Assembly: GCA_016181965.1 (NCBI GenBank)
Contig: JACOYH010000008.1
Location: 1-46,169 of the forward strand
Direction of reading: 5' to 3'
Source: Candidatus Nealsonbacteria bacterium
GTDB lineage: Bacteria > Patescibacteriota > Minisyncoccia > Minisyncoccales > MHMH01
DNA: 46,169 bases
In this document: piece after piece, positions 1,670-38,527 of the stretch
Layout of the letters: the number at the start of each line of letters is the position of its first letter
Position numbering within the stretch: the first letter of the stretch is position 1
Program-made: the position numbers and the translations under genes
Notes under the pieces: generated by a model
Databases searched by the model: none
What the model was told of the DNA's origin: nothing
What the model saw: the letters and a program-made list of their open reading frames with translations, nothing else

Positions 1670-1677
1670 AAAATTAT

Positions 1678-3775: not shown

Positions 3776-5178
3776 ATTCTTTTTACCATGCTATACCCCA
3801 AGCGCGCCCAATAGATGAGTTCTCCCGGCGTTTTAATCTTGATTAGTTGTTTAAGGATATAACTGGGACGCAGATAAAAACGCTTCATAAGGCCGGCTTG
3901 GAGCTTCAATAAATCATCTCCGTCAAAATATTGATAGCTCCATGAAGGTTTTCCGCCGTATAAAATAAAGTCGTTCCAGTTTTCTTGAATCAAATAATTG
4001 CCCTCTTTCATAATTCTGTTTAATTCAGTGCCGGGAAACGGCACGGTAATGAAAAAAGCCATAAAATCCGGGTTTAACTCCATGATTAAATTCATAGTGA
4101 GCTTGATATCTTCTGTTGTTTCCAACGGATGATTGCCCAGCATAAAAGTCGCATCAATGTATCGCAACCCTGTTTTGCGGCAAAGCGCAAAGGCCTCTTT
4201 AATTTGTTGAATTGTAGTTTGCTTATTAATCAGCTTCAGAATTCTCTCGCTGCCGGACTCTATGCCAAAAGAAACTTTCTCGCAACCGCTGTCAACGGCT
4301 TTCTTCAGAATATCTTCTCCAACCAAATTAACTCTCATATAGCAGTCCCAGGTGACTTTTTTAGATTTTAAATAATCGCAAATCGGGTAAAACAAGTCCT
4401 TCCTGAAGGCGAAAGTATCATCCATAATTGAAAAATGATTCGTCTGATGTTTTTTAATGCACTCGTCCATCTCCGCGATGATATTTTCTACGCTGCGATA
4501 TCTGACCCTTCTATTAAAATTCACATTAACGGCGCAAAAAATGCAATTAAAAGGGCAACCTCGGGCGGTTATAACTTCAGCTATGTTTTTGACGGTTCTG
4601 GAAAAACCGCGGCTGGCGTGGGTTTTTTTATATAACGCCATATCCAGGAGTTCTCTGTCGGGGAAAGGCAAGGAATCCAAATTTTCTATCAGGGGCCTGG
4701 CTCCCGTATCAACGAAGCCGGAACCATTGCGGAACAACAAGCCCCTAACCCCCGATAGGTCACCGTTACAAACCAATGCGTTATGCAGTTCCAAGAGAGT
4801 CAGCTCTCCCTCTCCTTTCGCGATAAAATCAAAGCAAGGAAACTCTTGCAGAGTTCTTTGCGGCAAAGCCGTAGCATGAACTCCGCCAACTATAATTTTT
4901 ATGTCCGGAAATCTCGCTTTAATGATTTTAGCCAAATCGTGTCCGGCTATTATATTAGAAGTCACACAGCTCATTCCTATTAAAATGGGGTTGCGCTCTT
5001 TAATAAAATTCCCCAAAGAATCGTCGGCAAGGTCTTGGACTTCGCAATCCAAGAGGTCCACTTTCACATTATTTTGCTTTAAATAAGCAGCTAAATAACC
5101 CAAGCTTATGGGATATTGGGTTGAGACAATCTCGCGCGGCACTAATTTGTTCCGTGGCCTGATAAGAATAACGCCCAT
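3772..5178 (-). CDS. B12-binding-domain radical SAM enzyme (class B), paralog 1
   Basis: N-terminal B12-domain layout (GMSCVTSNI..IIVGGVHAT) and CxxxCxxC in RGCPFNCIFCA. Start moved to the internal ATG (MGVILIRP) at 5178, just past the upstream stop at 5183. Confidence 0.85.
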   Translation of the reverse strand: MGVILIRPRNKLVPREIVSTQYPISLGYLAAYLKQNNVKVDLLDCEVQDLADDSLGNFIKERNPILIGMSCVTSNIIAGHDLAKIIKARFPDIKIIVGGVHATALPQRTLQEFPCFDFIAKGEGELTLLELHNALVCNGDLSGVRGLLFRNGSGFVDTGARPLIENLDSLPFPDRELLDMALYKKTHASRGFSRTVKNIAEVITARGCPFNCIFCAVNVNFNRRVRYRSVENIIAEMDECIKKHQTNHFSIMDDTFAFRKDLFYPICDYLKSKKVTWDCYMRVNLVGEDILKKAVDSGCEKVSFGIESGSERILKLINKQTTIQQIKEAFALCRKTGLRYIDATFMLGNHPLETTEDIKLTMNLIMELNPDFMAFFITVPFPGTELNRIMKEGNYLIQENWNDFILYGGKPSWSYQYFDGDDLLKLQAGLMKRFYLRPSYILKQLIKIKTPGELIYWARLGYSMVKRI

Positions 5179-5182
5179 TTTG

Positions 5183-7195
5183 TTAGTTGATTTTATATAT
5201 TCTCGCAAATTCGTTGGCTTCGGAATTATCAAATTTTAATTCCAAACGGCTATTTGCCAAACATTTTTGCTCTAAATCCCGGGGCCAATATTTATTCACG
5301 TATAAATAATGATAGCCCAAGGATTTTAAGGACTCGGTCTCGCAATTTTCCAGAATATTTTTATAAACAGATACTTGGGGAGCGAAGGCGTCATAGCGGC
5401 TTTCCATATTTTTTTGAATGTTATACCAGTAAAGAAAGTCCGGAGCAAATCTGCCCGTCCGAATGATGAAAGAAGAATTATGATAAGTCCCGGCATTAAT
5501 CTCTCCAAAAGTGAAAAAGATATCGGGAATTTCGGTTTCCTTTTGAATCCAGTTAAACGCTTCTTTTTCCACCGCGTTCAAGGCGGGCATTTGTCTTCCT
5601 AAAAATGGCCGTCCGAATTGCAAATCGGGAAAAACAGAAAATAATAAGAGGTAGATCATGCCTTGAAAGATAACCACTAAAACAAACAGTCCCAACAAAA
5701 TTTTCTTCCAATAAGACCTAAAATGTAAAATCAAAACAGCCAAAACAAAACCAAAAATTAAATTCCAGAAAAGCGCAGATAAATAATTTATGTCAACGAA
5801 ATCACCTTGCGATATGCCGGCGTTGACAATCAGGGGGATGGCGAAAGAGACGATAATAAGTAAAACCAAGAATGAACCGACCTGAGGATGCCGCGCGATT
5901 AGATACGCGGCCGCGGGGATAATAAAAAATATCAGCCAGCCCCAACCGAAAATAAAATCCTGGCCAAAAATCGGAACTGCAACGTTCTCATTTGTAACAT
6001 TAATTAGCGCTAAACCCTTGAAAAGATATTCCGGACTTATTGAAAAATTATGGCTGATGGGCGAGGCATGGCCAAAAAATACCTGCCTCGCAGTTTGGCT
6101 GACAATGCCGCCCTGTAAAAAAGCGAATAAAATACCTAAAAATAATATCAAAAGAGAGATTTTAAAATATACCCTGCCCAATTTTAGGTCCTTTTTAAGG
6201 AGAGCGTAAATCGCGGGAAAAGCGATAAAAACCGCCGCAAAGACGCTAAAGAAAAGTTCGGCAACTAACGCGAGAACAGCAAAAAGAACTGCGCAAAGCA
6301 GAGAAATCTTGAGCCAATGATTTTGCTCGTGGGCGGCTCTGAAATAAAGATGCATTATCGTTAAAGATAGGGCGAAACCCAGCAATACCCATGGAACTTC
6401 AAAATAGATTGTTATGATACTGCCGTGAATTTCCTTGCCAAATATCATATCGCTGACAAACCTAAAGGGCGCGTCAATCGGCTGAGCTAAAATAAATTTT
6501 CGGTATAGCGACGACAATCCGTCTATGCCATAAAGAAAGTTCAGATTACCGCCGAAAAGCATCACTAGGGCGCCAAGAAAGGCCTTAAAATTGCTTCGGC
6601 AAAAATTTCTTATCAATAAAAATCCCAATAGAAATATTGCGCCTATAAGGATGCCGTTCTGAAGGTCGTGGCCAAGCCAAACTGGCAGGCCGGTCACCCT
6701 GGCTATGGCTGCCAAAAATAAATTATAACCATAATGGTATTGGGAAGGAAATTCGGGCGCGAATACGGCCCTAACCGGAAAATTGCCCTCGGAAATAGTG
6801 GCCGCCAAGGGCAAGTGATCATAAAACATTTGGTCTGAAGATTCGCTGCGCAGAGCGATGACTCCGGCGACGGCGATGATTAAAAAAGTTGTGCCCAGCA
6901 AAATCATGCGCCATTTCTTCGTCATCTCCCATTTTGGCGCTTCTTTATTTTTGTTAACAACGCTCAAGACGCCGGCAGTCGCGGCCAAAACGGCCAAGAG
7001 CAAATAAAAATTAACGCGGATATCGATAAAATACGATGACAAATTCAGAAGGAAAATATAAGAGGAAAAACCGATGGTAATTGCCAAGGGAATTAGCATC
7101 TCAATGCTTTTTTCATTCATCAAAAACCTGACTGCCTGCCAGCCAAACGCAAACAATATGGCGAAAAAAATAATTAATAAAAATAGAGTCAGCAT
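5183..7195 (-). CDS. Large polytopic membrane protein with a C-terminal soluble domain, possibly a GT-C-like glycosyltransferase
   Basis: 670 aa with more than 12 hydrophobic segments and a roughly 140 aa polar C-terminus. Lies between a radical SAM gene and a methyltransferase in the glycan operon. No family motif recognised with certainty. Confidence 0.45.
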   Translation of the reverse strand: MLTLFLLIIFFAILFAFGWQAVRFLMNEKSIEMLIPLAITIGFSSYIFLLNLSSYFIDIRVNFYLLLAVLAATAGVLSVVNKNKEAPKWEMTKKWRMILLGTTFLIIAVAGVIALRSESSDQMFYDHLPLAATISEGNFPVRAVFAPEFPSQYHYGYNLFLAAIARVTGLPVWLGHDLQNGILIGAIFLLGFLLIRNFCRSNFKAFLGALVMLFGGNLNFLYGIDGLSSLYRKFILAQPIDAPFRFVSDMIFGKEIHGSIITIYFEVPWVLLGFALSLTIMHLYFRAAHEQNHWLKISLLCAVLFAVLALVAELFFSVFAAVFIAFPAIYALLKKDLKLGRVYFKISLLILFLGILFAFLQGGIVSQTARQVFFGHASPISHNFSISPEYLFKGLALINVTNENVAVPIFGQDFIFGWGWLIFFIIPAAAYLIARHPQVGSFLVLLIIVSFAIPLIVNAGISQGDFVDINYLSALFWNLIFGFVLAVLILHFRSYWKKILLGLFVLVVIFQGMIYLLLFSVFPDLQFGRPFLGRQMPALNAVEKEAFNWIQKETEIPDIFFTFGEINAGTYHNSSFIIRTGRFAPDFLYWYNIQKNMESRYDAFAPQVSVYKNILENCETESLKSLGYHYLYVNKYWPRDLEQKCLANSRLELKFDNSEANEFARIYKIN

Positions 7196-17448: not shown

Positions 17449-18867
17449 TTATTGTACCTTCGTAAATAGCCATCTTTTAATCGTTTGGCGATGTTGACGG
17501 GCGGTCTTTAAAAAATGCAGAGGGTGGCGGAAAAAATAGGCAAACTTTGCTTGTCTAACATACCTGAAAACCTGCTCGTAAGTCAAACCGGGCTGTTCAA
17601 AAATTGGCATGCAGGGCGAGGCCGACAGCGGCGGATAGGACCTGTCCATTTTATACGGCTTTGCCCAAGAAAAATCTTTGGGCAAATTCCCGGAATTTTT
17701 GGCGAGCATTTCCATTTCGGTGCCGGGATAAATTACGGAAATCCCCTGCGTCGTGCCCTCTACGCCCAATTCGTAAAAAAGATAGCGGCTTAGAAAAACG
17801 GTCTTTTTAATATCCTCGTATGTTTCGCCCGGCAGCCCGTGCATGAAAAACGCTTTCATGCCTATGCCCGCTTTTTTTATGACCTTAGCGGCTCTTATCG
17901 CCTGCTCAACGGTAATGCCTTTTCTGATATTTTTTAAAATTTTATCGCTGCCCGACTCAATACCCAAATCAATAAATTCGCAACCAGCTTTTTTCATGGC
18001 TGCCGCCACTTCCTCGTCGATGGTATTGGCCCGGGCTTCGCATTCCCAAACGAAATTAAGCTTTCGCCTGATAATTTCGTCGCAAATCGCCAAAACCCTT
18101 TTTTTGTCCATCGTAAAAACATCGTCAAAAAATCTGATGCCCTCAAAAAAGGGATAGGTCTTGAAAAGGTATTCTATTTCGTCGAGGACATTAAGGGGCG
18201 ACCTGTGACGAATGCTGTGGCCCCATTGCTCGGAAGTGGAACAATAAACGCAGTAATAGGGGCAACCCCGACTGGTCATAATATTAGTGCATCTTTTTTT
18301 GGAAAGAAAAGTTCTTTGAGTATATTTTTCTATTGGCAGTAAATCGCGAGCCGGCAGGGGCAGGGCGTCTAAATCCTGAATGGCTGATTCTCTGGGATTG
18401 TGGACGATATTTCCCTTATTGTCCCTAAACGAAATTCCCTTAACATCGAAAAAATCTCTGCCTTGCTCCATGGCTCTGACTAAATTTAAAAAAGAAATTT
18501 CCCCCTCCCCCTTAACGACCGCGTCTATCTCCGCAAGATTTTCCAAAGTGTCTTGAGCCGTGAGAGTCGGGTGGGGACCGCCAACCACTATTGAAATATT
18601 CGGCATTTCTTTTTTAATGCTCCTTATTAAATCAAAGGCGCTAAATCGAATTTGCGTGCCAAAAGATATGCCGATAAGATCGGGCGGATTCTTTTTCAGC
18701 AAACCAATAATATCTTCGTTAGAATAATTATTGGCCATGCTCTCAATTAGAGAAACATCGTTGAAGCCGTTGCTTCTTAAAACGGCCGCCAGCCAAGCAA
18801 TGCCCAAGGGAGGCATATTGGGCTTTGTTTGGAAGGTGTTCGGCGGAAAAATTAAAGTGATTCTCAT
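17449..18867 (-). CDS. B12-binding-domain radical SAM enzyme, paralog 3
   Basis: MRITLIFPPN..GISFGTQ..VVGGPHPT. CxxxCxxC in RGCPYYCVYC. Start moved to the ATG at 18867. The 33 upstream codons of the track ORF run into the promoter and palindrome. Confidence 0.85.
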   Translation of the reverse strand: MRITLIFPPNTFQTKPNMPPLGIAWLAAVLRSNGFNDVSLIESMANNYSNEDIIGLLKKNPPDLIGISFGTQIRFSAFDLIRSIKKEMPNISIVVGGPHPTLTAQDTLENLAEIDAVVKGEGEISFLNLVRAMEQGRDFFDVKGISFRDNKGNIVHNPRESAIQDLDALPLPARDLLPIEKYTQRTFLSKKRCTNIMTSRGCPYYCVYCSTSEQWGHSIRHRSPLNVLDEIEYLFKTYPFFEGIRFFDDVFTMDKKRVLAICDEIIRRKLNFVWECEARANTIDEEVAAAMKKAGCEFIDLGIESGSDKILKNIRKGITVEQAIRAAKVIKKAGIGMKAFFMHGLPGETYEDIKKTVFLSRYLFYELGVEGTTQGISVIYPGTEMEMLAKNSGNLPKDFSWAKPYKMDRSYPPLSASPCMPIFEQPGLTYEQVFRYVRQAKFAYFFRHPLHFLKTARQHRQTIKRWLFTKVQ

Positions 18868-18914
18868 GTAAATAACAACACCGCTAAATAGGTTAGCGTT
18901 AGCGAATTGAATAG

Positions 18915-18943
18915 ATTCTAACAAAATTTCGGCCGTCAGACAA
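18915..18943 (-). promoter_or_regulatory. Candidate sigma70 promoter for the 18867-to-1 minus-strand operon
   Basis: On the minus strand: TTGTCT (18943-18938), a 17-nt spacer, then TAGAAT (18920-18915). Confidence 0.4.
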
Positions 18944-18963
18944 GCAGACCGAGTTTCAACTAA

Positions 18964-18991
18964 CACTACTATACTATGTAGTATAGTAGTG
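18964..18991. promoter_or_regulatory. Perfect inverted repeat, 13-bp arms and a 2-nt spacer
   Basis: CACTACTATACTA tg TAGTATAGTAGTG, read directly. Lies 20 nt upstream of the candidate -35 in a divergent intergenic region. Confidence 0.8.
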
Positions 18992-20181: not shown

Positions 20182-21591
20182 TCATACAGACAATATGGCC
20201 ATAGCTCCCTGCCAGTATCTTTTGATGTCTTCAAATCCGCGGATAGAGAGGACTTTGGGCGCAATATAGCTCAAGCGAAAATGAAATTTCATATATGCGT
20301 ATTTCTTTGTTTTCTGTAATTCTTCCATACTTTTGTATCCCTCGGGCAGAAAGGTGGCAAAATATCCGGTCAGCTTATCGTATGACTCATCAACCATCCT
20401 GCCCCACTTGCCTTCTTTAATTTCTTTATAGAGCGCGGTCTCGGGATAGGGAGTCAGGATATTAAACTTTACATAGTCAGGATTCAGCTTACAAAGCGTC
20501 TTGAGCATTTTTCGGACTTTTTCCGGCGTTTCCTTGGGCAACCCCAAAATGAAATTCGCCCTGCTCTCAATTCCCGCTTCTTTGGTCCACGAAAGGGCTT
20601 GCGTAATCTGTTCAATAGTTATCCTTTTATTGACTGCCTCTAATATTTCCGGGTCCAAACTTTCTATGCCAAAAAAAATGCACCGGCAACCGGCCTTCTT
20701 CATCTTTTCTAACAGGTCTCGGGCGATCGTATTGACTCTGCACTCGCACGACCATGTCAGGTCGATTTTTTCCCGGAGAATCGTCTCGCAGAATTCCTCA
20801 ATCCATTCCCTATTTAAACCCCAAACATCATCCCAAAAATTTATCTCTTTTATGCCGTAATTATCTATGAGATGCTTTATTTCTTTGATAACGCTTTGAA
20901 CCGATCTTATGCGGTATTTCCTTGTCCAAATTGCCTCGGTATTGCAAAAAGTGCAATTGTACGGACAGCCGCGGCTGACCATCATCGTGGTCATTGGCGT
21001 TCGCTTATACTGATTTGGCGAAGGCCTATATGATAAAAGCGGCACCAAATGCCTGGCTGGAAAAGGCAGAGAATCCAATTCCCGTATCAATTCCCTGCGG
21101 GGGGTTATCACGGCTTCGCCGTTTTCCTTAAAGCCGATTCCTTTGACCGCCCTTAAATCAGTTTTTGTTTTGAGGCCATTCAGCAACTCCACCAGCGAAA
21201 GCTCGCCCTCGCCAATAACAATATAATCAACGCAATTATTGGATAAAACCTCAAGTGGCCTGATGGTAACGTGGGGCCCGCCAAAAATAATCGGGATATG
21301 CAATTTTTCTTTTATGCCTTGAGCCAGCTCTAAAGTGTGTCGGTAGTTGGAAGTGTTGCAGTATAGGCCCGCAACATCGGGACTCTGGCCGGCGCATCGT
21401 TCAATTGTTTCCTCCATCGTCCAATTGTGAAGCTGGGTGTCCAATATCTTCGGCTTAAAGCCATTGTTCTCCAGCGCCGCTCCTAAATATAAAAGTCCGA
21501 GCGGAGGCAAACAGGAACCGATTTTTTCAATCCCTCGGCCATACCTTTCCTTCATGGAAAATGGAGGCATAATGAGCAATATATTTTCCAT
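20182..21591 (-). CDS. B12-binding-domain radical SAM enzyme, paralog 4
   Basis: MENILLIMPPF..GLYCNTSN..IFGGPHVT. CxxxCxxC in RGCPYNCTFC. Confidence 0.85.
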   Translation of the reverse strand: MENILLIMPPFSMKERYGRGIEKIGSCLPPLGLLYLGAALENNGFKPKILDTQLHNWTMEETIERCAGQSPDVAGLYCNTSNYRHTLELAQGIKEKLHIPIIFGGPHVTIRPLEVLSNNCVDYIVIGEGELSLVELLNGLKTKTDLRAVKGIGFKENGEAVITPRRELIRELDSLPFPARHLVPLLSYRPSPNQYKRTPMTTMMVSRGCPYNCTFCNTEAIWTRKYRIRSVQSVIKEIKHLIDNYGIKEINFWDDVWGLNREWIEEFCETILREKIDLTWSCECRVNTIARDLLEKMKKAGCRCIFFGIESLDPEILEAVNKRITIEQITQALSWTKEAGIESRANFILGLPKETPEKVRKMLKTLCKLNPDYVKFNILTPYPETALYKEIKEGKWGRMVDESYDKLTGYFATFLPEGYKSMEELQKTKKYAYMKFHFRLSYIAPKVLSIRGFEDIKRYWQGAMAILSV

Positions 21592-28639: not shown

Positions 28640-30739
28640 TTATTTGTTCGTAAGAATGCCATCAATGAGTTCTGGTTTGAGGAAGTTATCGCGTATTTGT
28701 GGCCATGTGGCCCAAAGAATCTCGAGCATTGGCTTATTCGTACACTTACTGACTTCGCTACCAGCCAGAAAGCGCTTTTTAATGTGGTTTGAAATGACAG
28801 CGTAAATGTACTCTTGTCGGGCATCCGGATTGCCATCATACTCAATCAGTGCGTCTGCGGCAGTTTCAGCCATCTCTTTTAGGATTATACGCTGTAGTTC
28901 GTCCGTGGAGCGTGCGGCAGTAGTTTTAACTTCATCAACTTCAATCGCAGGTATTTCATCCCTATCAAGAGTGTTGAAGCCAGAGTCAAGATTTCTTGAC
29001 TTAATCTGGTTGATTCTTTCTTCTATAGAAACACCCTCCATTGTGTATTCGTACTCATCGAGGTATTTCTGCCATTCTGTGATTGGTTCTCTGGCCTCAA
29101 TAAAATCTGGTACTTCTTTAGCGACTTCGGCCCAGTCGGTATTTTCCATTTCTTCTTTTACCTTGTCGGCAGTATCTTCTTGAGTCGCTTCTTGTGGTGG
29201 TTCTGGGATATTTTGTTCATCAATAATATCTCCGGGGTTAAGAGGTGCTTCATACTTCGCGGCGTCAAGCAAATCCCAAAGCCAATCGTGCTTGAGAATC
29301 GGATGATCTACCACAAATAAGCTTTCCCATCTGTTTTTACTATGGATAATGCGCCTCAAGCCCCGTCCGATTACTTGCTGGCCATATACAGAGCTTGGTT
29401 TTGCGGTCGGATCCCTTTTTGCCACTTTCATGTGATAGGAAAATTTTCGAAACAGGCAAATGACTGAAATATTTTTTACGTCCCAGCCTTCGCGCAACAT
29501 CATAACTGAGATAACCACATCGTAAGGAACATTCTTCATGTCCTTATTAAGGGCCATCGCTGCTTCCTTGTCTTCTTCCGGTGATTTGTTCGTAACTACG
29601 AGAACTTGCTTTTTGAAGGTACTACTGCGCAGAGTTTTTGCGATGTGGTTTGCGTCTTCAATACTGAATGTAACTATAAGCAGAAGTGGTTTGTACTTCG
29701 GTTTACCGTCAGTATCAATCGGCACGGCTCGTTTTTGGTGTTCAAGGCACTGCAATGCCACTTGTAGTAGTTGTACCGATGGCTGATCGTCCATTACATA
29801 CTTTACGGCCGGAACTTTCACCTTTTTGCCGTCGTACGTGCGTTCAACCCAACCTTTTTCGAGTTGCTCCCACGGCACCTCGTCAACGGAATAAATTTTG
29901 CCCTCCTCGTCTCGCCAATTGAGTTTTACCATTTCTATATCCGGCTTGAAAACAACGATGCGTTTTACAACCTTATCTCGCATTGCCTCTCGGATGCTAT
30001 ATTCGTAAATCATTTCACTATCTGGATGCAGGCCGTCGAGTCGCTCTGGTGTAGCTGTTGTGTCAATGCGAATGAAGCGTTTTGGTTCGAGTTTCTTGAG
30101 GAGCAGATTATACTGCTTTGCCTTTGTGTTGTGCGCCTCGTCATTGAAAATCGCTATTTTATCAACATTGCGTTCATCCATCAGAAGTTTGAGATTCACT
30201 TTTCCTTCGTATATCTGATGTACATTCCCAAGAATAATGTTATTCGATATGATGCCCGAGGAATTTGAACCACGCTCCATAACATGCAAACTGAACCGGT
30301 CTTTGAGATAATCGTAGTGATTGAAGAAGAAATGAAAGACGTCGTACACGAATGTCGGCGATGATGGGTCAAAATCATCAACAAGCCGTTGTCGAACGAT
30401 AGTATTTGGTACAAGAATGAGGAACTTGTTGAAATCATGCACGATACGAAGGTAGGCGATAATTCCGCCAATAATGACGGTTTTGCCGCCGCCGGTAACC
30501 ACATCGAGAAGCAGGTCTTTTTTATTTAATACCTCAAAGGCGTAAATACTGCGTAGAATCGCTTGGCGTTGGTGTTTATACAAATCATAGGTTGAGGATT
30601 GCCGAAAGCTATCCGAGGAAAGATACTGTAAGAATTTCCTTGCCTTATCGTTTTTTGCCGGATCGTTAAACACGAATCGATACCCATCCTCGCACCATTT
30701 CGCAAAATCCTTTTCGTGTTTTAAGAAAGTGTTAATCAT
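28640..30739 (-). CDS. Type III restriction Res-like SF2 helicase/ATPase, short and without a recognisable nuclease motif
   Basis: Walker A VVTGGGKTVIIGG, DEAH box IFNDEAHN, and motif VI QVIGRGLRR. Confidence 0.8.
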   Translation of the reverse strand: MINTFLKHEKDFAKWCEDGYRFVFNDPAKNDKARKFLQYLSSDSFRQSSTYDLYKHQRQAILRSIYAFEVLNKKDLLLDVVTGGGKTVIIGGIIAYLRIVHDFNKFLILVPNTIVRQRLVDDFDPSSPTFVYDVFHFFFNHYDYLKDRFSLHVMERGSNSSGIISNNIILGNVHQIYEGKVNLKLLMDERNVDKIAIFNDEAHNTKAKQYNLLLKKLEPKRFIRIDTTATPERLDGLHPDSEMIYEYSIREAMRDKVVKRIVVFKPDIEMVKLNWRDEEGKIYSVDEVPWEQLEKGWVERTYDGKKVKVPAVKYVMDDQPSVQLLQVALQCLEHQKRAVPIDTDGKPKYKPLLLIVTFSIEDANHIAKTLRSSTFKKQVLVVTNKSPEEDKEAAMALNKDMKNVPYDVVISVMMLREGWDVKNISVICLFRKFSYHMKVAKRDPTAKPSSVYGQQVIGRGLRRIIHSKNRWESLFVVDHPILKHDWLWDLLDAAKYEAPLNPGDIIDEQNIPEPPQEATQEDTADKVKEEMENTDWAEVAKEVPDFIEAREPITEWQKYLDEYEYTMEGVSIEERINQIKSRNLDSGFNTLDRDEIPAIEVDEVKTTAARSTDELQRIILKEMAETAADALIEYDGNPDARQEYIYAVISNHIKKRFLAGSEVSKCTNKPMLEILWATWPQIRDNFLKPELIDGILTNK

Positions 30740-30741
30740 AG

Positions 30742-32754
30742 TTATTCCTCAACCTTAAGTTGTATTGATTTTATCGTTTCACCACCAAAGCTGTCCTGTA
30801 CTTTACATGCGATAGTGTAAGTACCTGGCCGTTCAAAGGTTTTTTCCACTTCAAGATCAGCTTCAAACCCATTGCCCTTAATAGCTTTGCGGCGAAGCGC
30901 ATACTCGGGATCAGAGAAGTTGCCACTCGCATAGTTGAAGTCCCACTGGCAGTTAATAAGATTGCCGCCCTCATTTAAGCTTTTGGCAAGTGCCTCAAGG
31001 CGATATGTGAATTTCTTGTCTTTATCTTTCTTCACTATAATTTCGTTGATGATTGGCGATTCCACAAACTGCATCAATTTTTCTTTATCTTCTTCCGGTA
31101 CGCCGTAGGTTGTTGCAATGCGCTCTCGGAATTGTTTGCTGCGTATGGGTATCAACTCAATTTCAAGAACTACTCCTTGCATTTGTAGCTTTTTGAAGAA
31201 GCCCTTAAGAAGTTGGCGACAGTAATCTTTGATAGAAGGATCAAATTGCCAAGCAATTATAGTAAGTGTATAGCGCTGGTTTTTTTGAATATGCTTGCCG
31301 ATAACAGCTTGTACAAATTCTTTTACTCGCTGGACATTTAGTTTCTTATGAGGTGATGCGGGGCCGATAAGTATTGGCTCAAATTGCGTTTTGAATCCAG
31401 TAACGTCATCTTCAACAGTATTTTTGCTTCCACCGAAGCACGTTAATACAAAAGTGTCGAAATCGTCTTGCGAAAGATTGTCAAACTTATCCGTTGGGTA
31501 AACGCCGTGGTAGTACACATAAATGTTTGGTACTTTTCGATCCGCCATAATCTTGCCCTGTACTTTTTCTAATTTTTTTGAGAAGGATGCCTTCTCGCCA
31601 GTCATTCCTTCAGCATCTTTCACAAGGCGATCCGAGGTTACTGATACTGCGACACGCGAAATGTCCGAACCTATAAAGCGACGGCCGAGCTTTTGCGCTG
31701 CCGCAAGCGTTGTGCCACCGCCCATAAAGAAATCTCCAACGACATCGCCCTCATTTGAACTTGCTTTGATAACTCTCTCTAATAGTGCCTCCGGCTTTTG
31801 AGTTGGATAACCTAATCGTTCCTTTATTGCTTCGCCGAAAATATGTACTGGCTTTATGTCATCCCAGACATTATCGATAATTTCTCCTTCTGTTTCGTCA
31901 AGATACTGTTTTCTATCTCCACCAGTCGTCTTTTTTTGAATTCTATAAATTCTTCCGTCTTTATCTTTGTGGGTAAAAAACTGTTTTAGGTATTGTTCAC
32001 GGTATGGTTTATATTGGTGGTTAAATATATAATTTGACGATTTGGAGTAATATAAAATTGAGTCAAATTTTCTTGGAAAGAACTTAGCGGTTCTTCTTTT
32101 CATGCCATGATATTTCCATATAATTTCTCCTAAATAATTTTCGTATCCGAAAATATTATCCATTTCGGTTTTGATATAATGACTCGCGTGCCAATCGCAA
32201 TGTACATAGATTGATCCTGTTGTTTTGAGTACGCGCTTCATTTCCCATAGGCGCGTATTGAGCCAGATGATGTACGTTGGCAAGCCCCCATCCCAGATGT
32301 CGTTGAAGGTGCGTAGCTCGTTATCGTCGCCCCAAACTTGATTATAAACACGGCCTGAGAAAAATGGCGGGTCAATATATATGAGGTCAATACTATTTGA
32401 TGGCAAGCTCCGAAGGATTTGCAAATTATCACCAAAGTAAATCGCATTAAGGGGGTGTTTTTTATTTTTCACATCAAGATACCCGGCATCCCCAAAACCA
32501 AAGCTTATATTGTCTTCCGGGGTCTCGGGGTGAAGAAACGGCAACTTTACGAATGGATAGACGTTATCGTAGCCACGTCCCGCCTCGTATCCCATGGGTG
32601 GACTTGTAGGATCGGGCAGATTGTGGAGTTTCGAGAAGCGTTTGCTTATACTGAAAACTTGCGCTTGCTCAGGTAGAACTTGCGCTTCCGATTCCTGCTC
32701 TATCTGTTTAAGCTCCTCAATTGATTGTGTTTCTGCCTTTGATTTTCTGGTCAT
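30742..32754 (-). CDS. Beta-class N6-adenine (or N4-cytosine) DNA methyltransferase, Type III Mod-like, with a C-terminal PKD-like domain
   Basis: Motif IV LIYIDPPFF precedes motif I GDVVGDFFMGGGTT. The last 77 aa, CQWDFNYASG..FERPGTYTIACKVQDSFGGET, resemble a PKD repeat. Confidence 0.8.
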   Translation of the reverse strand: MTRKSKAETQSIEELKQIEQESEAQVLPEQAQVFSISKRFSKLHNLPDPTSPPMGYEAGRGYDNVYPFVKLPFLHPETPEDNISFGFGDAGYLDVKNKKHPLNAIYFGDNLQILRSLPSNSIDLIYIDPPFFSGRVYNQVWGDDNELRTFNDIWDGGLPTYIIWLNTRLWEMKRVLKTTGSIYVHCDWHASHYIKTEMDNIFGYENYLGEIIWKYHGMKRRTAKFFPRKFDSILYYSKSSNYIFNHQYKPYREQYLKQFFTHKDKDGRIYRIQKKTTGGDRKQYLDETEGEIIDNVWDDIKPVHIFGEAIKERLGYPTQKPEALLERVIKASSNEGDVVGDFFMGGGTTLAAAQKLGRRFIGSDISRVAVSVTSDRLVKDAEGMTGEKASFSKKLEKVQGKIMADRKVPNIYVYYHGVYPTDKFDNLSQDDFDTFVLTCFGGSKNTVEDDVTGFKTQFEPILIGPASPHKKLNVQRVKEFVQAVIGKHIQKNQRYTLTIIAWQFDPSIKDYCRQLLKGFFKKLQMQGVVLEIELIPIRSKQFRERIATTYGVPEEDKEKLMQFVESPIINEIIVKKDKDKKFTYRLEALAKSLNEGGNLINCQWDFNYASGNFSDPEYALRRKAIKGNGFEADLEVEKTFERPGTYTIACKVQDSFGGETIKSIQLKVEE

Positions 32755-32852: not shown

Positions 32853-33554
32853 CTATTCTTTATTGGGCATATCTTGTAAAAGCTGGGCGGTAAGTGCCTC
32901 TGCCTCCATCCAGTGTACCGTAAGATCAATAAGCTTTTTTAGATCTTGCAGGTCTTTTTGGTCCCACTTCCGCAGATAATGTGTTTCATCATTGCCTAAC
33001 CATGCCGCCCTTTTTGCAACTTCCTTTATGCTTGGATCTTTGATTCGATTCTTTATACACGTAGCTAGGGGTTCGCTTTTGATTTTTTCTTGTTCTTCAT
33101 CTTCCTTCACTTGCTTTAAGAGATAATCCTTTGCGAGAAATTCAAGCGCTTTTCTGTAACCTGCGCCGCATACCTGATCAAGTCCTGCATTTTCAGCGGC
33201 CAAAGATTGGTTGAAAATTCGAGGAAAATCAACCGAAAGGCCTTTTATGGTATTTGAAAATAATCGTTCAGAATAAGTTTTCGGTTCCGTGTTCCTTAAA
33301 TAAAAATCATTTCTGTCGGAACGTTTGGAGTAATAACCAATGAAAATTTCGTGACAATCATTATTTGGGCACCTAAAAACTACCTCTAATGTCTTATCCG
33401 AATCTTCGTTTTTCCTATTGAAAAACCCACCCCACTTAATGGGACTTATTTTTTCATGACATTGAGGACATTCATTGGGAACTTTATCTAGTCTGCCGTT
33501 ACCGCCACTTCTGCCCTCCTCGTCATTAAATTGTATATCTAATATATCACTCAT
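32853..33554 (-). CDS. Zinc-ribbon plus DUF4145 domain protein
   Basis: CPQCHE..FRCPNNDCHE at the N-terminus. C-terminal QSLAAENAGLDQVCGAGYRKALEFLAKDY..AAWLGNDETHY matches the DUF4145 pattern. Confidence 0.6.
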   Translation of the reverse strand: MSDILDIQFNDEEGRSGGNGRLDKVPNECPQCHEKISPIKWGGFFNRKNEDSDKTLEVVFRCPNNDCHEIFIGYYSKRSDRNDFYLRNTEPKTYSERLFSNTIKGLSVDFPRIFNQSLAAENAGLDQVCGAGYRKALEFLAKDYLLKQVKEDEEQEKIKSEPLATCIKNRIKDPSIKEVAKRAAWLGNDETHYLRKWDQKDLQDLKKLIDLTVHWMEAEALTAQLLQDMPNKE

Positions 33555-33691
33555 AGTTTTTACTTAATTGTACATTATAAATCACCGCAGAGCAAATGAA
33601 CCATCGCCGGGCAGTTTTTATTATTTTGGCTTGTTTTTCGAGTAAAAAAGTGATAGAAAAGAAACAAAACGAAACAAAACAAAACAATGCT

Positions 33692-35419
33692 ATGCAGATA
33701 ACGCAGTTACAAATAAAGAATTACAAAAGCTTTGGCGATTCGTCGGATCTTATAAATTTCTATGGTCCACATTCATTATTGGTTGGCAAAAATAATGCCG
33801 GTAAATCTAATATCTTATCCGCCCTCGGTTTATTGCTTGGCACAAAGAATCCGAACTACATCAAATTAGTCAAAGAAGACTTCTTTGATAGCTCAAAACC
33901 AATAAGGATACAGCTTGTTTTAGGAAACTTTACCGATCAAGATAAGCAAGAACTATTCGGATTACCGAATTTAATAAAGCAACAGAGAGGTGCTCTTTCA
34001 AGTAAGAACCCAGAAGACATAGAAATAACTTTTTCTTTTCAATATTCTGTTCAGAATGGCGCAGAAGCAGCAAGTGGCCAAGAAGAACAACAGCAATCGC
34101 AATTTGAGCTAAAACTATGGGGGTTTGCTGTTCGTAGGAAAATCGAGGAAACAAGATTCGCCCTCATTCGGATATTGAAGGTACCTGCTGTAAGGGATGC
34201 GTCAGAAGAATTGGCCGGATCAAAATGGACGTATTACGGACAATTAATGAAATCGATTTTAGAGGACTCTCCCCGTTATGGAGAAGTTAGGGGAATACTT
34301 GAAAACCTTAATGCAAAAATTCAAGAAATTTTTACCGGTCAAAAAACCCATTTACTTTCCGGCGCAAAAGTAGTTTCTTATGTGGACGATATAATTTTTG
34401 AACTTACAAAAGAAGGAGAACCGAGCGAGCTTTTGCGCAATCTTGAAGTTTTCATCAAGGAAGGAGACAGAAAAGTTAATATTCAGAATACCGGTACTGG
34501 CACGCAAAGTGCGGTTATTATTGGAATTTTTGAATTAGCACTCAAAAATAAACCATCTAAAACAAGAGTATTTTGTATTGAGGAACCAGAGGTATTCATT
34601 CACCCACATGGCATAAGATATCTGGGTGATTTACTCAGAAAAATTACTGAAGATGGCAAAACTCAAATTATAGCTTCCTCGCATTCCCCGGCCCTAATTG
34701 CCACGTTTAGCCCGCAAGAAATTATTAGAGTTGATAAATCAGGGGGAGAGACAAAAATATTTCAACCACCTCCAAGCGCTTTAACGGAGGGGCATTTCAG
34801 GAGATTTATTAATTCCGAGAGTGCGGAATTATTCTTTAGCGATAAAGTTCTTTTAGTTGAGGGTGATACCGAGAAACAAGTTTTGCCAACCCTGGGAAAG
34901 ATTACGCCACGAAATATTTCTACTCCACAAGGAGAAAATTGCGACTTTGATAAAGCAAATATAGGGATTATTAAACTGAACGGTAAAGAAAATTTGATGA
35001 ATTTTATTAAGATTCTTGAAGCGTTCAAAATCTCATACTTAGCATTATTGGATAAAGATTTCTTGCAGGGTTCGCAACTTGGAAATATCTGCCAGAAACT
35101 CAACATTCAAAGTTCTAGCAATTCTCAACTTATATCGGAGTTGAAGAACCATAATATAATTGTGAATACGAAGGGAGAAATAGAAGACTTGATTCCCGAT
35201 GCTGATTTAGCAATGATGATTGGCAAAACTGTCCAAGATATTCAACAAATTAAAGTCAGTAGAAAAGCAAGCACCGCATTTTCAGGAGGTATTTTCAACG
35301 TTGGAAAAACTGCCTACGCAATTAAGATTGCTAATTTTTACGAAAGTCAAAATAGAAATCCTATAGCTAATTTAATTAGGAGTCTATGCTTATTTGATAA
35401 ATCATCGATTACCTTTTAG
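33692..35419 (+). CDS. OLD-family ATP-dependent nuclease (ABC-type ATPase plus Toprim)
   Basis: MQITQLQIKNYKSFG..LLVGKNNAGKSNILSAL (Walker A), VFCIEEPEVFIHP (Walker B), ASSHSP, and Toprim LLVEGDTEKQVLP with LALLDKD. Start taken at the internal ATG; the 32 upstream track codons look non-coding. Confidence 0.8.
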   Translation: MQITQLQIKNYKSFGDSSDLINFYGPHSLLVGKNNAGKSNILSALGLLLGTKNPNYIKLVKEDFFDSSKPIRIQLVLGNFTDQDKQELFGLPNLIKQQRGALSSKNPEDIEITFSFQYSVQNGAEAASGQEEQQQSQFELKLWGFAVRRKIEETRFALIRILKVPAVRDASEELAGSKWTYYGQLMKSILEDSPRYGEVRGILENLNAKIQEIFTGQKTHLLSGAKVVSYVDDIIFELTKEGEPSELLRNLEVFIKEGDRKVNIQNTGTGTQSAVIIGIFELALKNKPSKTRVFCIEEPEVFIHPHGIRYLGDLLRKITEDGKTQIIASSHSPALIATFSPQEIIRVDKSGGETKIFQPPPSALTEGHFRRFINSESAELFFSDKVLLVEGDTEKQVLPTLGKITPRNISTPQGENCDFDKANIGIIKLNGKENLMNFIKILEAFKISYLALLDKDFLQGSQLGNICQKLNIQSSSNSQLISELKNHNIIVNTKGEIEDLIPDADLAMMIGKTVQDIQQIKVSRKASTAFSGGIFNVGKTAYAIKIANFYESQNRNPIANLIRSLCLFDKSSITF

Positions 35420-35470
35420 CATATGATCAAACTCTGGAAGTAGTTAGAATAGAACTTATTTTAAGACATT

Positions 35471-36415
35471 ATGTCTCTCATTTTTGGGGTAAACTTATGT
35501 GATCGGATATATCTTTCTGCTGATACCAGATTGACCACTCAAACGGAGGGAGGGGATTATCAATATAAGGATAAGCTATTAAAGATTCAGGCGCTTTCAA
35601 GGAACATTATTGTTGCAGCAGCTGGCCACGCAAGTATGGCAGCGTATATTATTAGGGAATTACTTAAATTAGAATTGGTAAAACTTGATATAAGGACGGT
35701 GCGTAAAGAAATGAGCGACGTTATTAAGCCAATAGTCGATCAGTATTGGCAGAAATATGACGGAAACCACAAGGTTTGTTTTATATTTGGAGGATTGAAC
35801 CATTCTGACAAGAAAGATTTGAACTTTAAGAATGTCTACCAGAAAGTGAAGTTTTTTAATAAGGTAGACATGGATAGTTCATCAATGAACCTTAAGCCAG
35901 CACTTTTTAACGCCATGCTCAAAACGGAGGGAATACCACCTCGTTATCCAGAACCTTCTGATTCTCATATTTTTTCTATATTGATTACTCCGCCAAATGG
36001 CTTTAATGTTGAAGATGCAGGGTGGGGGGAATACCTTGCGTATGGGCCAAAAGGAATAAATAAAGATGCATTACCTGAGATAACTTTTGGTAAACTTGAA
36101 TTTGAAACACGTGCTCTGGATTTTGACAGAGGACATGATCATACAGTAATAGCAGGTTTTATGCGCATGGTTGTTGAAAAATATCAAGAAAACACTATAG
36201 GTGGTTCGGTATTAACAGTTGTTATGAGCGATCGGGTATCCGGCGTTATCACTGGAAGGGTTGGTATGATTGATCCGATAACAGGAAGAGACATTTTGGT
36301 TTCGGAGGTATATCAAGATAAAAATGGTAGACTCTATAGAAAAGACGAAACAGGCACAATCTATAAAATGGTTCACCTCGCAAATTATAAGGATTTTGGT
36401 TCACTTGAACTTTAA
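35471..36415 (+). CDS. Proteasome-beta/HslV-like Ntn-hydrolase-fold protein (candidate), with a large insertion
   Basis: MSLIFGVNLCDRIYLSADTRLT..YKDKLLKIQALSRNIIVAAAGHASMAAYIIRELLKLEL parallels TTIVGV..VVLAADTRAT..KI..AG..AD of proteasome beta/HslV. That places Ser2 at the Thr1 position, Asp at 17 and Lys near 33. Later segments FIFGGLN, HIFSILI and IGGSVLTVVM fit the fold's beta strands. Confidence 0.4.
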   Translation: MSLIFGVNLCDRIYLSADTRLTTQTEGGDYQYKDKLLKIQALSRNIIVAAAGHASMAAYIIRELLKLELVKLDIRTVRKEMSDVIKPIVDQYWQKYDGNHKVCFIFGGLNHSDKKDLNFKNVYQKVKFFNKVDMDSSSMNLKPALFNAMLKTEGIPPRYPEPSDSHIFSILITPPNGFNVEDAGWGEYLAYGPKGINKDALPEITFGKLEFETRALDFDRGHDHTVIAGFMRMVVEKYQENTIGGSVLTVVMSDRVSGVITGRVGMIDPITGRDILVSEVYQDKNGRLYRKDETGTIYKMVHLANYKDFGSLEL

Positions 36416-36429
36416 CGACTTACTAAATT

Positions 36430-36873
36430 ATGGATAAAGAATATACCGAAAAACAGTGGGAAGAAGAAATGCGCCTCAGTGTTTTTTGTGGGCACCATAC
36501 AGATTCATTTCATAATGGTTGTATTCTACAATGTCCCAAATGTGGAGAGGTGGGGTTTTATGGGCCCAGAATAGATCCGGATTCTAAGAAATATAGGGCA
36601 TGTAAGTTTTGTGGTTGGTGGCAGGAAGTACAAGGAGAGGAGGGTCGTAATATAAATAATGGAGAACCTTATCGTTGTAAACATTTTTGTTGTGATCAGT
36701 GTGGGGTATACGATTGGGGCATAACAGACAATCTCAGATTTTGTCCCAAGGGTCACGAGACGAAAAAAATAGATTGGGCTTCGGATGACCCTAACCACCA
36801 TTTCCATCAATTGAAAAAGGACATGGATCAAATACACCAAAACTTAAATCTTCCACGCATCGCTACTGAATAA
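36430..36873 (+). CDS. Cys-rich multi-zinc-ribbon protein
   Basis: CPKCG..CKFCG and CCDQCG..CPKGH pairs. Lies 14 nt downstream of the previous gene. Confidence 0.6.
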   Translation: MDKEYTEKQWEEEMRLSVFCGHHTDSFHNGCILQCPKCGEVGFYGPRIDPDSKKYRACKFCGWWQEVQGEEGRNINNGEPYRCKHFCCDQCGVYDWGITDNLRFCPKGHETKKIDWASDDPNHHFHQLKKDMDQIHQNLNLPRIATE

Positions 36874-36889
36874 TTCTATTAAGTATCAG

Positions 36890-37160
36890 TAAAACAGGTT
36901 CTAATATCGTCCAGTCCGCGGACGATGTAATTATTTGGTACCTGTTCTCCACTCCGGCCCTCATAAGCGGATACGAATTCTTCACAGATGACTGGAATTA
37001 GCGGGCACAGATCGCCGGCCGACCCGTATGTACTGTAGAAGTCGGACTTCTACGAATTCAGGTTTCGATTTTGAACCTCTTTGTCCAACCGTTCCAAATA
37101 ATGGGTTTACGACATCCCACAGTCCGCCTTGCGGCGGATGTGTGATGTCGGAAACCCTAG
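36890..37160 (-). ncRNA. Candidate structured non-coding RNA, class unknown
   Basis: A 335-bp gap between convergent genes, richer in GC than other intergenic DNA here. Nested stems 36893-36899/36940-36946 around the hairpin 36906-36926. Perfect 8-bp hairpin at 37035-37053. Long hairpin at 37110-37150 whose apex is a GCAA (GNRA) tetraloop only on the minus strand. Confidence 0.25.
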
Positions 37161-37162
37161 AA

Positions 37163-37189
37163 TGTGAGGGATGTTTAACATCCCTCACA
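37163..37189. repeat. Palindromic element, copy 1: TGTGAGGGATGTT t AACATCCCTCACA
   Basis: 13-bp arms, read directly. Lies downstream of the phosphatase-TspO gene, so probably a terminator stem. Confidence 0.8.
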
Positions 37190-37209
37190 CCCTTCACGGA
37201 GCTAATACA

Positions 37210-38181
37210 TTAGTTGAGAAGCCAGATGGCGAAGTTTAGATAAGCGGCGAAGGTTACCCAAAGAATATAAGGGACGAAAAGAATCCCCGCAACCGTTCTT
37301 ATCTTCCAGAATTTAACCATAGTTAGGAGAATAAGCAACCAGAGAATAATAATCACCAAAAAAGCCCAAAAAGGACTTCTAAGCCCAAAAAACACAATAG
37401 ACCACGAAGCATTCAATAAAAGCTGAATAAGATAAATACAAAGGGCAATTTTTATTCTTTTTCGCGCTTGTCCGTCCGTAGCTTTAGCGTAGGATGACCA
37501 TACTAGAAACGCGGCGATGCCCATTAAGGTGTAAAGAGTAACCCAAGCGGGCGCAAAAACCCAGCTGGGAGGGCTCAGGAGCGGCTTTGCAAGAAAAGCA
37601 TACCATGTTTGTATGCTGGAAGTTGTAAAAAACGAGCCGATGACCCCGGCCATTTGAGCGATGATAATGGAAGCGAATAAAGTAAAAATTGTTTTTGGCA
37701 TATTCATTTTGGGTACAAGCATTCTGCCGTAGAAATCACGGAGAGCCGAGCGCTGTGTTTCTTCAAGGTGTATAGTCGGCCGTTTTGACTTAATGAGGGC
37801 TTCGGCCTGTTGCGGAGTTTTTCCCAAACTGATGAGGTAAGCCGCCACTAAGGTGGGCGCCCTGCCGTGGCCGTGTTCGCAATGGACATATATTTTTCTA
37901 TTCATTGCAACAAGTTTTTTTATAGCCGACACGCCAAAATCAAGCTGATCTTGAGCTGGAGGCGCGTGGTCTCCCACCGGAATCCATACATAGAAATCAA
38001 CTCCGAACGGGGCGTCCAGACGCTCTTTTTCCAGCGAAATGTCCGCGGTTATGCCTTTTGCCGTTAGCTCTTCCTCAAAATGGCCTCGGCAGCATTGGTT
38101 GGTGCCGATGTAAATGCCGTCAATAATTTCGTTGTATTCAAATTTCGGAGTGAGGTGATGAGGTAATTTCTCAATGGGCAT
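37210..38181 (-). CDS. Dual-specificity (Cys-based) protein phosphatase fused to a TspO/MBR membrane domain
   Basis: CX5R P-loop VHCEHGHGRAPT in the N-terminal half. The C-terminal 5-TM region, WYAFLAKPLLSPPSWVFAPAWVTLYTLMG..LNASWSIVFFG..VPYILWVTFAAYLN, is typical of TspO. Start set at the ATG at 38181, 4 nt past the rhodanese stop. Confidence 0.75.
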   Translation of the reverse strand: MPIEKLPHHLTPKFEYNEIIDGIYIGTNQCCRGHFEEELTAKGITADISLEKERLDAPFGVDFYVWIPVGDHAPPAQDQLDFGVSAIKKLVAMNRKIYVHCEHGHGRAPTLVAAYLISLGKTPQQAEALIKSKRPTIHLEETQRSALRDFYGRMLVPKMNMPKTIFTLFASIIIAQMAGVIGSFFTTSSIQTWYAFLAKPLLSPPSWVFAPAWVTLYTLMGIAAFLVWSSYAKATDGQARKRIKIALCIYLIQLLLNASWSIVFFGLRSPFWAFLVIIILWLLILLTMVKFWKIRTVAGILFVPYILWVTFAAYLNFAIWLLN

Positions 38182-38185
38182 ATCT

Positions 38186-38527
38186 CTAAGCCGCTTCTCC
38201 TTCAAACTTATATCCGGCGTTTTGCCAGCCGGCAAGGCCGTCTTTGTAGTGCGTTACATTTGTGTATCCGGCTTCTTCAAGAATGTTGGCCGCCTCCGCG
38301 CTAGCCATGCAATGCTCTGACGAACAGTAAACGATTATTTCGGCATCTTTAGGTGCTCCAATTTTCTTTTCAAATTCCCGGAGAAAGCCGGGCTCGTTGG
38401 GAACATTTTTTGCTCCCGGAATATGCCGGGCCTGGTAACTATTAACCAATAAGACATCAACAAGATAGAAATCACCCCCTTGATCGATTTTCTTTTTCAA
38501 TTCCCCGGTTGTAATAACTTTTACCAT
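38186..38527 (-). CDS. Single-domain rhodanese-like sulfurtransferase
   Basis: LVDVL..YQARHIPGAKNVP and the active-site loop IIVYCSSEHCMAS. Confidence 0.75.
   Translation of the reverse strand: MVKVITTGELKKKIDQGGDFYLVDVLLVNSYQARHIPGAKNVPNEPGFLREFEKKIGAPKDAEIIVYCSSEHCMASAEAANILEEAGYTNVTHYKDGLAGWQNAGYKFEGEAA

Follow-up and report, generated by a model that had tools for sequence, protein, structure and literature searches.

OLD-family nucleases, in which an ABC-type ATPase is joined to a Toprim domain, are assigned to Class 1 when the ATPase-Toprim gene stands alone, without a helicase or reverse transcriptase (RT) partner (PMC10568477, PMC12392090), and Class 1 genes have been described as isolated single genes that are not proximal to other defence genes (PMC10568477). 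P2 Old, the Thermus scotoductus enzyme TsOLD and the Vibrio cholerae enzyme Vc OLD are precedents for this kind of nuclease (PMC10568477, PMC12392090, PMC12445682). Related arrangements are Gabija (Class 2), where the GajB helicase is adjacent, retron Eco8, which has an RT and a non-coding RNA (ncRNA), and PARIS, a phage anti-restriction-induced system (Class 4), in which the ATPase AriA and the DUF4435-type Toprim protein AriB are separate. Proteasome homologs have been surveyed by Fuchs, Alva and Lupas in 2021, who described 22 uncharacterised families and found no informative gene context for them (PMC8665760). Here we analysed 46,169 nucleotides (nt) of Candidatus Nealsonbacteria bacterium (contig JACOYH010000008.1, assembly GCA_016181965.1; hereafter the window), where an OLD gene (gene 1) is followed by a gene for a 314-amino-acid (aa) protein resembling proteasome beta subunits and HslV (gene 2) and by one for a 147-aa Cys-rich protein (gene 3). 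A first-pass annotation, made from the sequence alone, took the three genes for a new defence cassette. Our results make it fairly probable that the locus is instead a horizontally acquired defence island, formed by a Class-1-type OLD and a Type III-like restriction-modification (R-M) system, with two orphan genes behind OLD, and not a new three-protein system.

Results

The trio of OLD, gene 2 and gene 3 was seen in this organism alone, and two additional assemblies (L016 and L017) contain the same sequence. All six-frame open reading frames (ORFs) at homolog loci were searched with hidden Markov models (HMMs), and the trio was not repeated in the other loci examined from any side, so the proposed three-gene cassette is not supported. 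Starting from OLD, four distinct ortholog loci (68-79% identity) and one homolog locus at 49% identity were surveyed, and neither gene 2 nor gene 3 was present in any of them (0/4 and 0/1). Starting from gene 3, OLD and gene 2 were both absent from its three distinct loci (L010, L011/12 and L013-15), two of which lie amid ribosomal and replication genes. The gene-2 survey covered 11 further distinct loci (L001-L009, counting L002 and L007 as one site, plus L018, L019 and L020/21); gene 3 was found at none of the 11 and OLD was missing in 10, with L008 as the sole exception. The synteny of gene-2 homologs with OLD genes, which the first-pass annotation had named as a check on the cassette, is therefore largely absent.

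At L008 the OLD-family gene is convergent with the gene-2 homolog, is 22% identical to the window OLD across the 190 residues of the best BLASTP segment, and was not detected by phmmer with the window OLD at E <= 1e-3. One OLD adjacency in 11 loci is above the expectation for a random gene and is unremarkable for a gene that occasionally lies in defence islands. The L008 island (464-6628) holds the gene-2 homolog, a Schlafen/AlbA_2 gene, a DUF3800 gene, a weak HEPN-like match and the distant OLD/AriA-like gene, and a 161-aa ORF in it ends 1 nt before the gene-2 homolog starts.

Elsewhere the neighbours of gene 2 are varied: a MacB-type ABC transporter, YchF and SSB, TsaD and SET, pyruvate kinase, a cation-efflux protein together with endonuclease V, an NgoFVII-type restriction enzyme, and a serine-recombinase element. 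Four of the 12 loci are defence- or element-like (the window, L008, L004 and L019). All-against-all BLAST of the neighbours at the 12 loci revealed no conserved partner of gene 2, and just two similarities. The first is a small gene 3' of the gene-2 homolog that is common to L001 (7964-8272) and L004 (2271-2480), with 57% identity; the second concerns the upstream proteins of L002 and L019, both with a PG_binding_1 domain. No AAA+ unfoldase (HslU) was found among the Pfam-scanned genes around gene 2 or beside its homologs. At L018, a 139-aa ORF (6358-6792) just upstream of the full-length homolog fits the gene-2 profile (E = 1.8e-15) and represents a partial tandem duplicate.

Gene 1 codes for a single fused ATPase-Toprim protein of 575 aa, and every OLD hallmark reported for it by the first-pass annotation was recovered in the translation, with Walker A (GKNNAGKS), Walker B (CIEEPE) and an H-loop (SSHSP) in the ABC-type ATPase half and EGDTEK and LLDKD in the Toprim half. 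The longest ORF opens at 33596, and the ATG at 33692 coincides with position 1 of the ATPase profiles. Pfam AAA_15 (124 bits, 1.2e-35; cut-off 32), AAA_21 (77 bits) and OLD-like_TOPRIM (62.3 bits, 6.3e-17; cut-off 23.2) were all matched, and the best PADLOC model was 'Old' (E = 1.2e-51), with the GajA and AriA models matched as well. Among solved structures the Class 1 enzyme TsOLD (6P74) was best at 1.6e-18, followed by GajA at 7e-9, and the Toprim region aligns to that of TsOLD. An 80%-identical OLD comes from Bacteroidetes, which along with the missing Shine-Dalgarno motifs is at most a hint at Bacteroidota as the origin of the window.

Neither a helicase nor an RT lies within the three genes or directly beside them according to ORF translations and Pfam, as the first-pass annotation had stated, and Rfam gave no match in the window that would place an RNA near OLD. 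Since no UvrD/PcrA/Rep-like helicase, RT or ncRNA is found alongside, the predicted nuclease is a Class 1 OLD by the published definition, and a new member of that class. It resembles P2 Old, TsOLD and Vc OLD in having no downstream UvrD-like helicase or RT. It differs from Gabija, as it has no GajB and its nearest helicase is the Res subunit on the other strand; from retron Eco8, as it has neither RT nor Rfam match and scores 56 with the NCBIfam Eco8 effector model, whose cut-off is 250; and from PARIS, as ATPase and Toprim are fused in one protein and the Toprim is OLD-like.

The isolation ascribed to Class 1 genes is not what we observe in this clade. The window OLD is divergent from an R-M operon, its orthologs directly adjoin R-M genes of differing type in four of four loci (Table 1), often in the same operon, and in the window two extra genes follow. 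On the basis of those four other loci, this OLD clade moves together with R-M modules, whatever their type. The Patescibacteria homolog at 49% identity stands alone in a conjugative-element-like region. Two genes that follow OLD relatives were considered as counterparts of gene 2 and rejected as unrelated: a 314-aa gene after the L023/L024 ortholog and a 317-aa gene after the L030 homolog. Directly 3' of the OLD ortholog in L023 (6981-10231) and L024 (3030-6295) there is a set like the cyclic oligonucleotide-based antiphage signalling system (CBASS), composed of a 169/174-aa membrane-like protein, a SMODS cyclase, a bacterial HORMA protein and an AAA ATPase, so that these two loci present a chain of R-M, OLD and CBASS-like genes.

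For gene 2, a proteasome-beta/HslV-like fold had been suggested from the N-terminal motif string MSLIFGV..SADTRLT..KDKLLKI..AAAGHASMA, which was confirmed in the translation, and the assignment is supported by structure prediction, Foldseek, Pfam matches within the family and conservation of the catalytic residues. The AlphaFold2 (AF2) monomer model has a predicted local distance difference test score (pLDDT) of 90.6 and a predicted template modelling score (pTM) of 0.90, and contains an alpha-beta-beta-alpha core of the N-terminal nucleophile (Ntn) type. Foldseek returned 689 matches against the PDB at E <= 1e-3, and among the matches listed 50 of 50 are 20S proteasome entries, with probability 1.0 and template modelling (TM) scores normalised to the target of 0.43-0.66; the structure search thus leads to 20S proteasome chains and not to a non-Ntn fold. 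Phage proteasome and HslV homologs are included among the matches in the viral library. At the sequence level, gene 2 itself reaches 14.1 bits with Pfam Proteasome (PF00227; E = 0.036), below the cut-off of 22.4. A word-indexed search yielded 38 relatives, 15 of which match Pfam Proteasome (E <= 1; best 3.4e-6), and any other Pfam family is matched by at most two of the 38. Alignment of the gene-2 profile with hhalign to single sequences of HslV and a Thermoplasma beta subunit gave the expected register at low probability, and against PDB sequences the profile produced marginal proteasome matches only (E ~0.07).

An exhaustive HMM search extended the gene-2 family to 275 clusters at 50% identity (E <= 1e-3), with lengths of 300-380 aa and alignments that begin at residue 1 in nearly all cases. 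Ser2 falls on Thr1 of the proteasome, Asp18 on Asp17, Lys38 on Lys33 and Gly52 on Gly47. In the alignment of 181 relatives, position 2 is Thr in 91 and Ser in 74, which makes Thr or Ser in 165 of 165 aligned; Asp18 is kept in 175/175, Lys38 in 177/177, Gly52 in 164/181 and Arg20 in 168/181. A Met that precedes Ser or Thr is expected to be removed by methionine aminopeptidase. Conservation of the catalytic residues among proteins at no more than 50% identity points to selection acting on the active site, which looks functional, and gene 2 would accordingly code for a catalytically intact proteasome-like enzyme. The insertion of roughly 100 aa that had been noted in it is real in size, with about 110 extra residues present, but the AF2 model distributes them over three places and not in one insertion: the S3/S4 hairpin is longer by about 4 residues, two helices are inserted at ~115-160, and strands are added at the C-terminus at ~270-300. 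The insert at ~115-160 and the C-terminal addition might hinder ring assembly, judging from the model (see also PMC8665760).

Gene 2 is therefore like proteasome beta and HslV in its Ntn core, its N-terminal nucleophile and its equivalents of Asp17, Lys33 and Gly47, and like HslV it begins with Met-Thr/Ser and has no long propeptide. It is unlike them in being about 110 residues larger, in having Ser for Thr, in falling below the PF00227 threshold and in lacking an unfoldase gene nearby, and an identification as HslV was rejected because of the absent unfoldase partner, the much larger size and the Pfam score. Connectase, a proteasome homolog of methanogenic archaea, lacks helices H1 and H2 and carries an insert of two helices between S3 and S4; in the gene-2 model H1 (54-65) and H2 (74-96) are present and the S3/S4 hairpin is extended by the few residues given above, and the named members of the family are bacterial, from the candidate phyla radiation (CPR), so this identification was rejected as well. 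By description only, gene 2 can be set beside the 'proteasome homologs with multiple insertions' PMI-1 to PMI-6 (PMC8665760), with which it shares the catalytic triad, the absence of a propeptide, several inserts, a C-terminal extension and an uninformative context. Gene 2 has no PADLOC family (E <= 0.1), NCBIfam or PHROG match, and no relatives in IMG/VR viral contigs.

Gene 3 had been described as a protein with four Cys pairs. It is Cys-rich, but its 11 Cys are arranged as three CxxC pairs plus CxxxC and C..H. Across 20 homologs the motif series CPxC..GFYGP..YRACKxCGxWQ is invariant and WASDDPNH is conserved. Profile searches gave no match in Pfam, PADLOC (E <= 0.1), NCBIfam, PHROGs or PDB sequences, no relatives were found in IMG/VR, and the AF2 model is of low quality (pLDDT 56), with a best Foldseek E of 1.4. 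The protein probably binds zinc together with a nucleic acid or protein partner. Where members of the gene-2 and gene-3 families are named, they all belong to CPR lineages (Parcubacteria, Nomurabacteria, Saccharibacteria and Portnoybacteria). No named system in PADLOC-DB v2.0.0 is matched by gene 2 or gene 3, as had been supposed, and the locus matches none beyond OLD and R-M.

The layout of the locus agrees with the first-pass annotation, since the ORF coordinates place three co-directional plus-strand genes with gaps of 51 and 14 nt in a defence island, divergent from the Type III-like R-M operon (Table 1). Shine-Dalgarno motifs are absent ahead of all three gene starts. The hairpin past gene 3 is the only plus-strand terminator-like site downstream of the OLD gene, and the remaining plus-strand site is inside the OLD gene itself. 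The G+C content at third codon positions (GC3) is 0.318 in OLD, 0.321 in gene 2, 0.338 in gene 3 and 0.346 in the DUF4145-like gene, compared with 0.40-0.45 in Mod and Res and 0.45-0.59 in flanking host genes. The block 32853-36873 looks like separately acquired foreign DNA.

In the minus-strand R-M operon, Mod and the Res helicase are accompanied by a DUF4145-like protein and a split TnsA-like nuclease. The DUF4145-like gene is the first of the operon, 98 nt upstream of Mod and divergent from OLD. The Res ORF ends with an in-frame TAA, followed by one codon and then, in the same frame, by the ATG of the TnsA-like endonuclease, which corresponds to the nuclease region at the C-terminus of Type III Res enzymes; it is probably the nuclease domain of Res, split off as a separate gene. 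Because relatives at least 90% identical have lengths of 700 and 701 aa, the split seems to be conserved and not a sequencing error.

Table 1. Positions of the main features in the window and of the OLD orthologs at other loci
Feature	Position	Strand	Evidence or context
OLD-family nuclease, ABC ATPase and Toprim, Class-1 type (gene 1)	33692..35419	+	Pfam, PADLOC, PDB matches, motifs
Proteasome-beta/HslV-like Ntn protein, 314 aa, no propeptide, Ser2/Asp18/Lys38/Gly52 (gene 2)	35471..36415	+	AF2, Foldseek, family alignment
Cys-rich zinc-ribbon-like orphan protein, 147 aa (gene 3)	36430..36873	+	20 homologs, alignment
Terminator-like hairpin	36904..36928	+	31 nt after gene-3 stop; consensus scan
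Protein of 233 aa, N-terminal zinc ribbon (CxxC...CxxxxC) and DUF4145-like C-terminus	32853..33554	-	phrog_1305 'DNA binding protein' 1.5e-40; Pfam DUF4145 4.8e-4, below threshold
Mod-type N6/N4 DNA methyltransferase, Type III-like R-M	30742..32754	-	Pfam N6_N4_Mtase 3.6e-45; PADLOC MTase_II 4.8e-67, MTase_III 2.6e-41
Res-type helicase subunit (ResIII), without own nuclease domain	28640..30739	-	Pfam ResIII 2.4e-18; PADLOC REase_III 2.1e-10
TnsA-like endonuclease, 140 aa	28214..28636	-	Pfam Tn7_TnsA-like_N 9.5e-10; PADLOC REase_III positions 758-828 of 871
OLD ortholog, L022	5001-6773		SNF2/PLD and Eco57I-type (Eco57I/N6_Mtase) gene; OLD starts 14 nt after
OLD ortholog, L023/L024	L023 5001-6782		Type III Mod and Res; 68-nt gap before OLD start
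OLD ortholog, L025-27	L025 5001-6782		Divergent from HTH, methyltransferase, R.Pab1 cluster
OLD ortholog, L028/29	L028 5001-6761		HinfI-type R-M; methyltransferase stop overlaps OLD start by 4 nt

Downstream of gene 3, a non-coding gap of ~340 nt (36874-37209) with short ORFs only (61 and 71 aa) precedes the next gene. It has no tRNA, Rfam match or flanking repeat, and may be an island boundary; the repeat search for such boundaries gave short chance matches only, and tRNA and Rfam scans of the whole window gave no matches. Beyond the gap, a minus-strand gene (37210-38235) codes for a dual-specificity protein phosphatase domain fused to a TspO/MBR membrane domain, and an overlapping rhodanese gene is next. 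Two paralogous B12-binding radical SAM enzymes are encoded on the minus strand (17449-18966 and 20182-21591) amid glycosyltransferase and envelope genes, with a plus-strand ORF of 311 aa between them in a locally GC-rich kilobase (0.537).

Discussion

The account we favour, with somewhat more confidence than doubt, is that of an acquired defence island in which a Class-1-type OLD and a Type III-like R-M system are accompanied by two orphan genes. Several observations weigh against it and have to be faced together. The three genes are packed with intervals of 51 and 14 nt, the consensus scan shows no terminator-like site between them, and the single terminator-like hairpin lies past gene 3. Because of this spacing, the placement of the terminator and the common low GC3, genes 1-3 were probably acquired jointly and share a transcript, which would suit a functional unit too. 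L008 is a second gene-2 locus with a directly adjacent OLD-family gene. The survey comprised 11 other gene-2 loci, 3 gene-3 loci and 5 OLD-homolog loci, with many contigs short, and the context of gene 2 covers 12 loci of a family of 275 clusters.

Another explanation is that genes 2 and 3 form a two-gene module that is independent of OLD and lies behind it by chance, in which the Ntn enzyme would have the zinc-ribbon protein or its bound target as substrate, for processing, ligation or degradation. The 14 nt between these two genes are much tighter than the 51 nt that separate them from OLD, the named members of both families share a CPR origin, and Connectase offers the precedent of a proteasome homolog that is monomeric and acts on a single specific protein (PMC7980362). 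The two families, however, never co-occur within ~7 kb in the 11 + 3 other loci, and we consider such a module unlikely.

The cassette originally proposed, with OLD, a proteasome-like Ser1 Ntn enzyme and a zinc-ribbon protein acting in this organism as one functional three-gene anti-phage operon, appears quite unlikely. Under this hypothesis the Ntn enzyme would be either the effector or a regulator of the nuclease, for example through proteolytic activation or the destruction of a phage or host protein. Common strand, narrow gaps, the lone hairpin, a shared low GC3 and the location in a defence island are all consistent with it, as are the L008 homolog, which adjoins an OLD-family gene in the company of Schlafen/AlbA_2 and DUF3800, and the lack of a PADLOC match to a named system for genes 2 and 3. 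Set against these points, the trio is confined to one organism, OLD orthologs at 68-79% identity do without both partners in 4/4 loci, gene-2 homologs do without gene 3 in 11/11 and without OLD in 10/11, the exception at L008 is convergent and carries an OLD of 22% identity over its best 190-residue BLASTP segment, and gene-3 homologs occur among housekeeping genes. There is likewise little chance that peptide-bond cleavage or ligation coupled to an ATP-driven Toprim nuclease constitutes a fifth, protease-linked class of OLD, which would have been seen once, with a possible loose echo at L008. If the trio were a system, a proteasome-type active site would be tied to nucleic-acid-targeting immunity, which would be unprecedented, but the comparative evidence opposes it.

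It is also conceivable, though we hold it to be very doubtful, that gene 2 works by itself as a conflict or mobile-element gene, be it a one-gene defence or a protease derived from a phage or element. The defence- or element-like third of its loci points in this direction, with the window and L008 (OLD, Schlafen and DUF3800) joined by L004 (the NgoFVII-type restriction enzyme) and L019 (serine recombinase, Rep-O-like protein and amidase), and so do the patchy distribution and variable context of the family, the known phage-encoded proteasome homologs (PMC8665760) and the viral Foldseek matches. The 8 other loci have housekeeping or uninformative neighbours, though, and neither IMG/VR relatives nor a PHROG match was found. 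The idea that gene 2 retains the proteasome fold only as a structural relic without catalytic activity can practically be dismissed, given that the subthreshold Pfam score of the window member and the large inserts, which may block the ring assembly that activates classical subunits, are outweighed by Thr/Ser2 in 165/165, Asp18 in 175/175, Lys38 in 177/177, Gly52 in 164/181 and Arg20 in 168/181 of its relatives.

In the acquired-island account, and by analogy with the described Class 1 enzymes, OLD would most likely act alone, as a homo-oligomeric ABC ATPase that is activated by phage infection and then nicks or cleaves nucleic acid at a two-metal Toprim site. PARIS senses the anti-restriction protein Ocr (PMC10802454), and a conceptually similar role can be imagined for OLD as a second line of defence when restriction is evaded, since R-M genes are its habitual neighbours. 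Genes 2 and 3 would be orphan genes transcribed behind OLD, each of them single elsewhere in unrelated contexts. After Met removal, the gene-2 protein would present Ser1 with a free amino group, which, together with the equivalents of Lys33 and Asp17, is predicted to attack a peptide bond. The outcome could be hydrolysis, or transpeptidation as in Connectase, although both chemistry and substrate are inferred by analogy. By analogy with Connectase (PMC7980362) and the PMI proteins (PMC8665760), the inserts may make the enzyme specific and give it a quaternary structure unlike that of the proteasome.

Taken as a whole, the locus consists of known kinds of genes in a one-off arrangement, and its value lies in the orphan proteasome-like family and in the coupling of OLD to R-M, not in the cassette. 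The gene-2 family, with ~275 clusters at 50% identity and a strictly conserved, propeptide-free Thr/Ser1 site, is a candidate for Connectase-like biochemistry. The OLD clade, repeatedly built into unrelated R-M operons, contradicts the textbook picture of Class 1 as isolated genes, and this coupling suggests that OLD may serve as a back-up to restriction.

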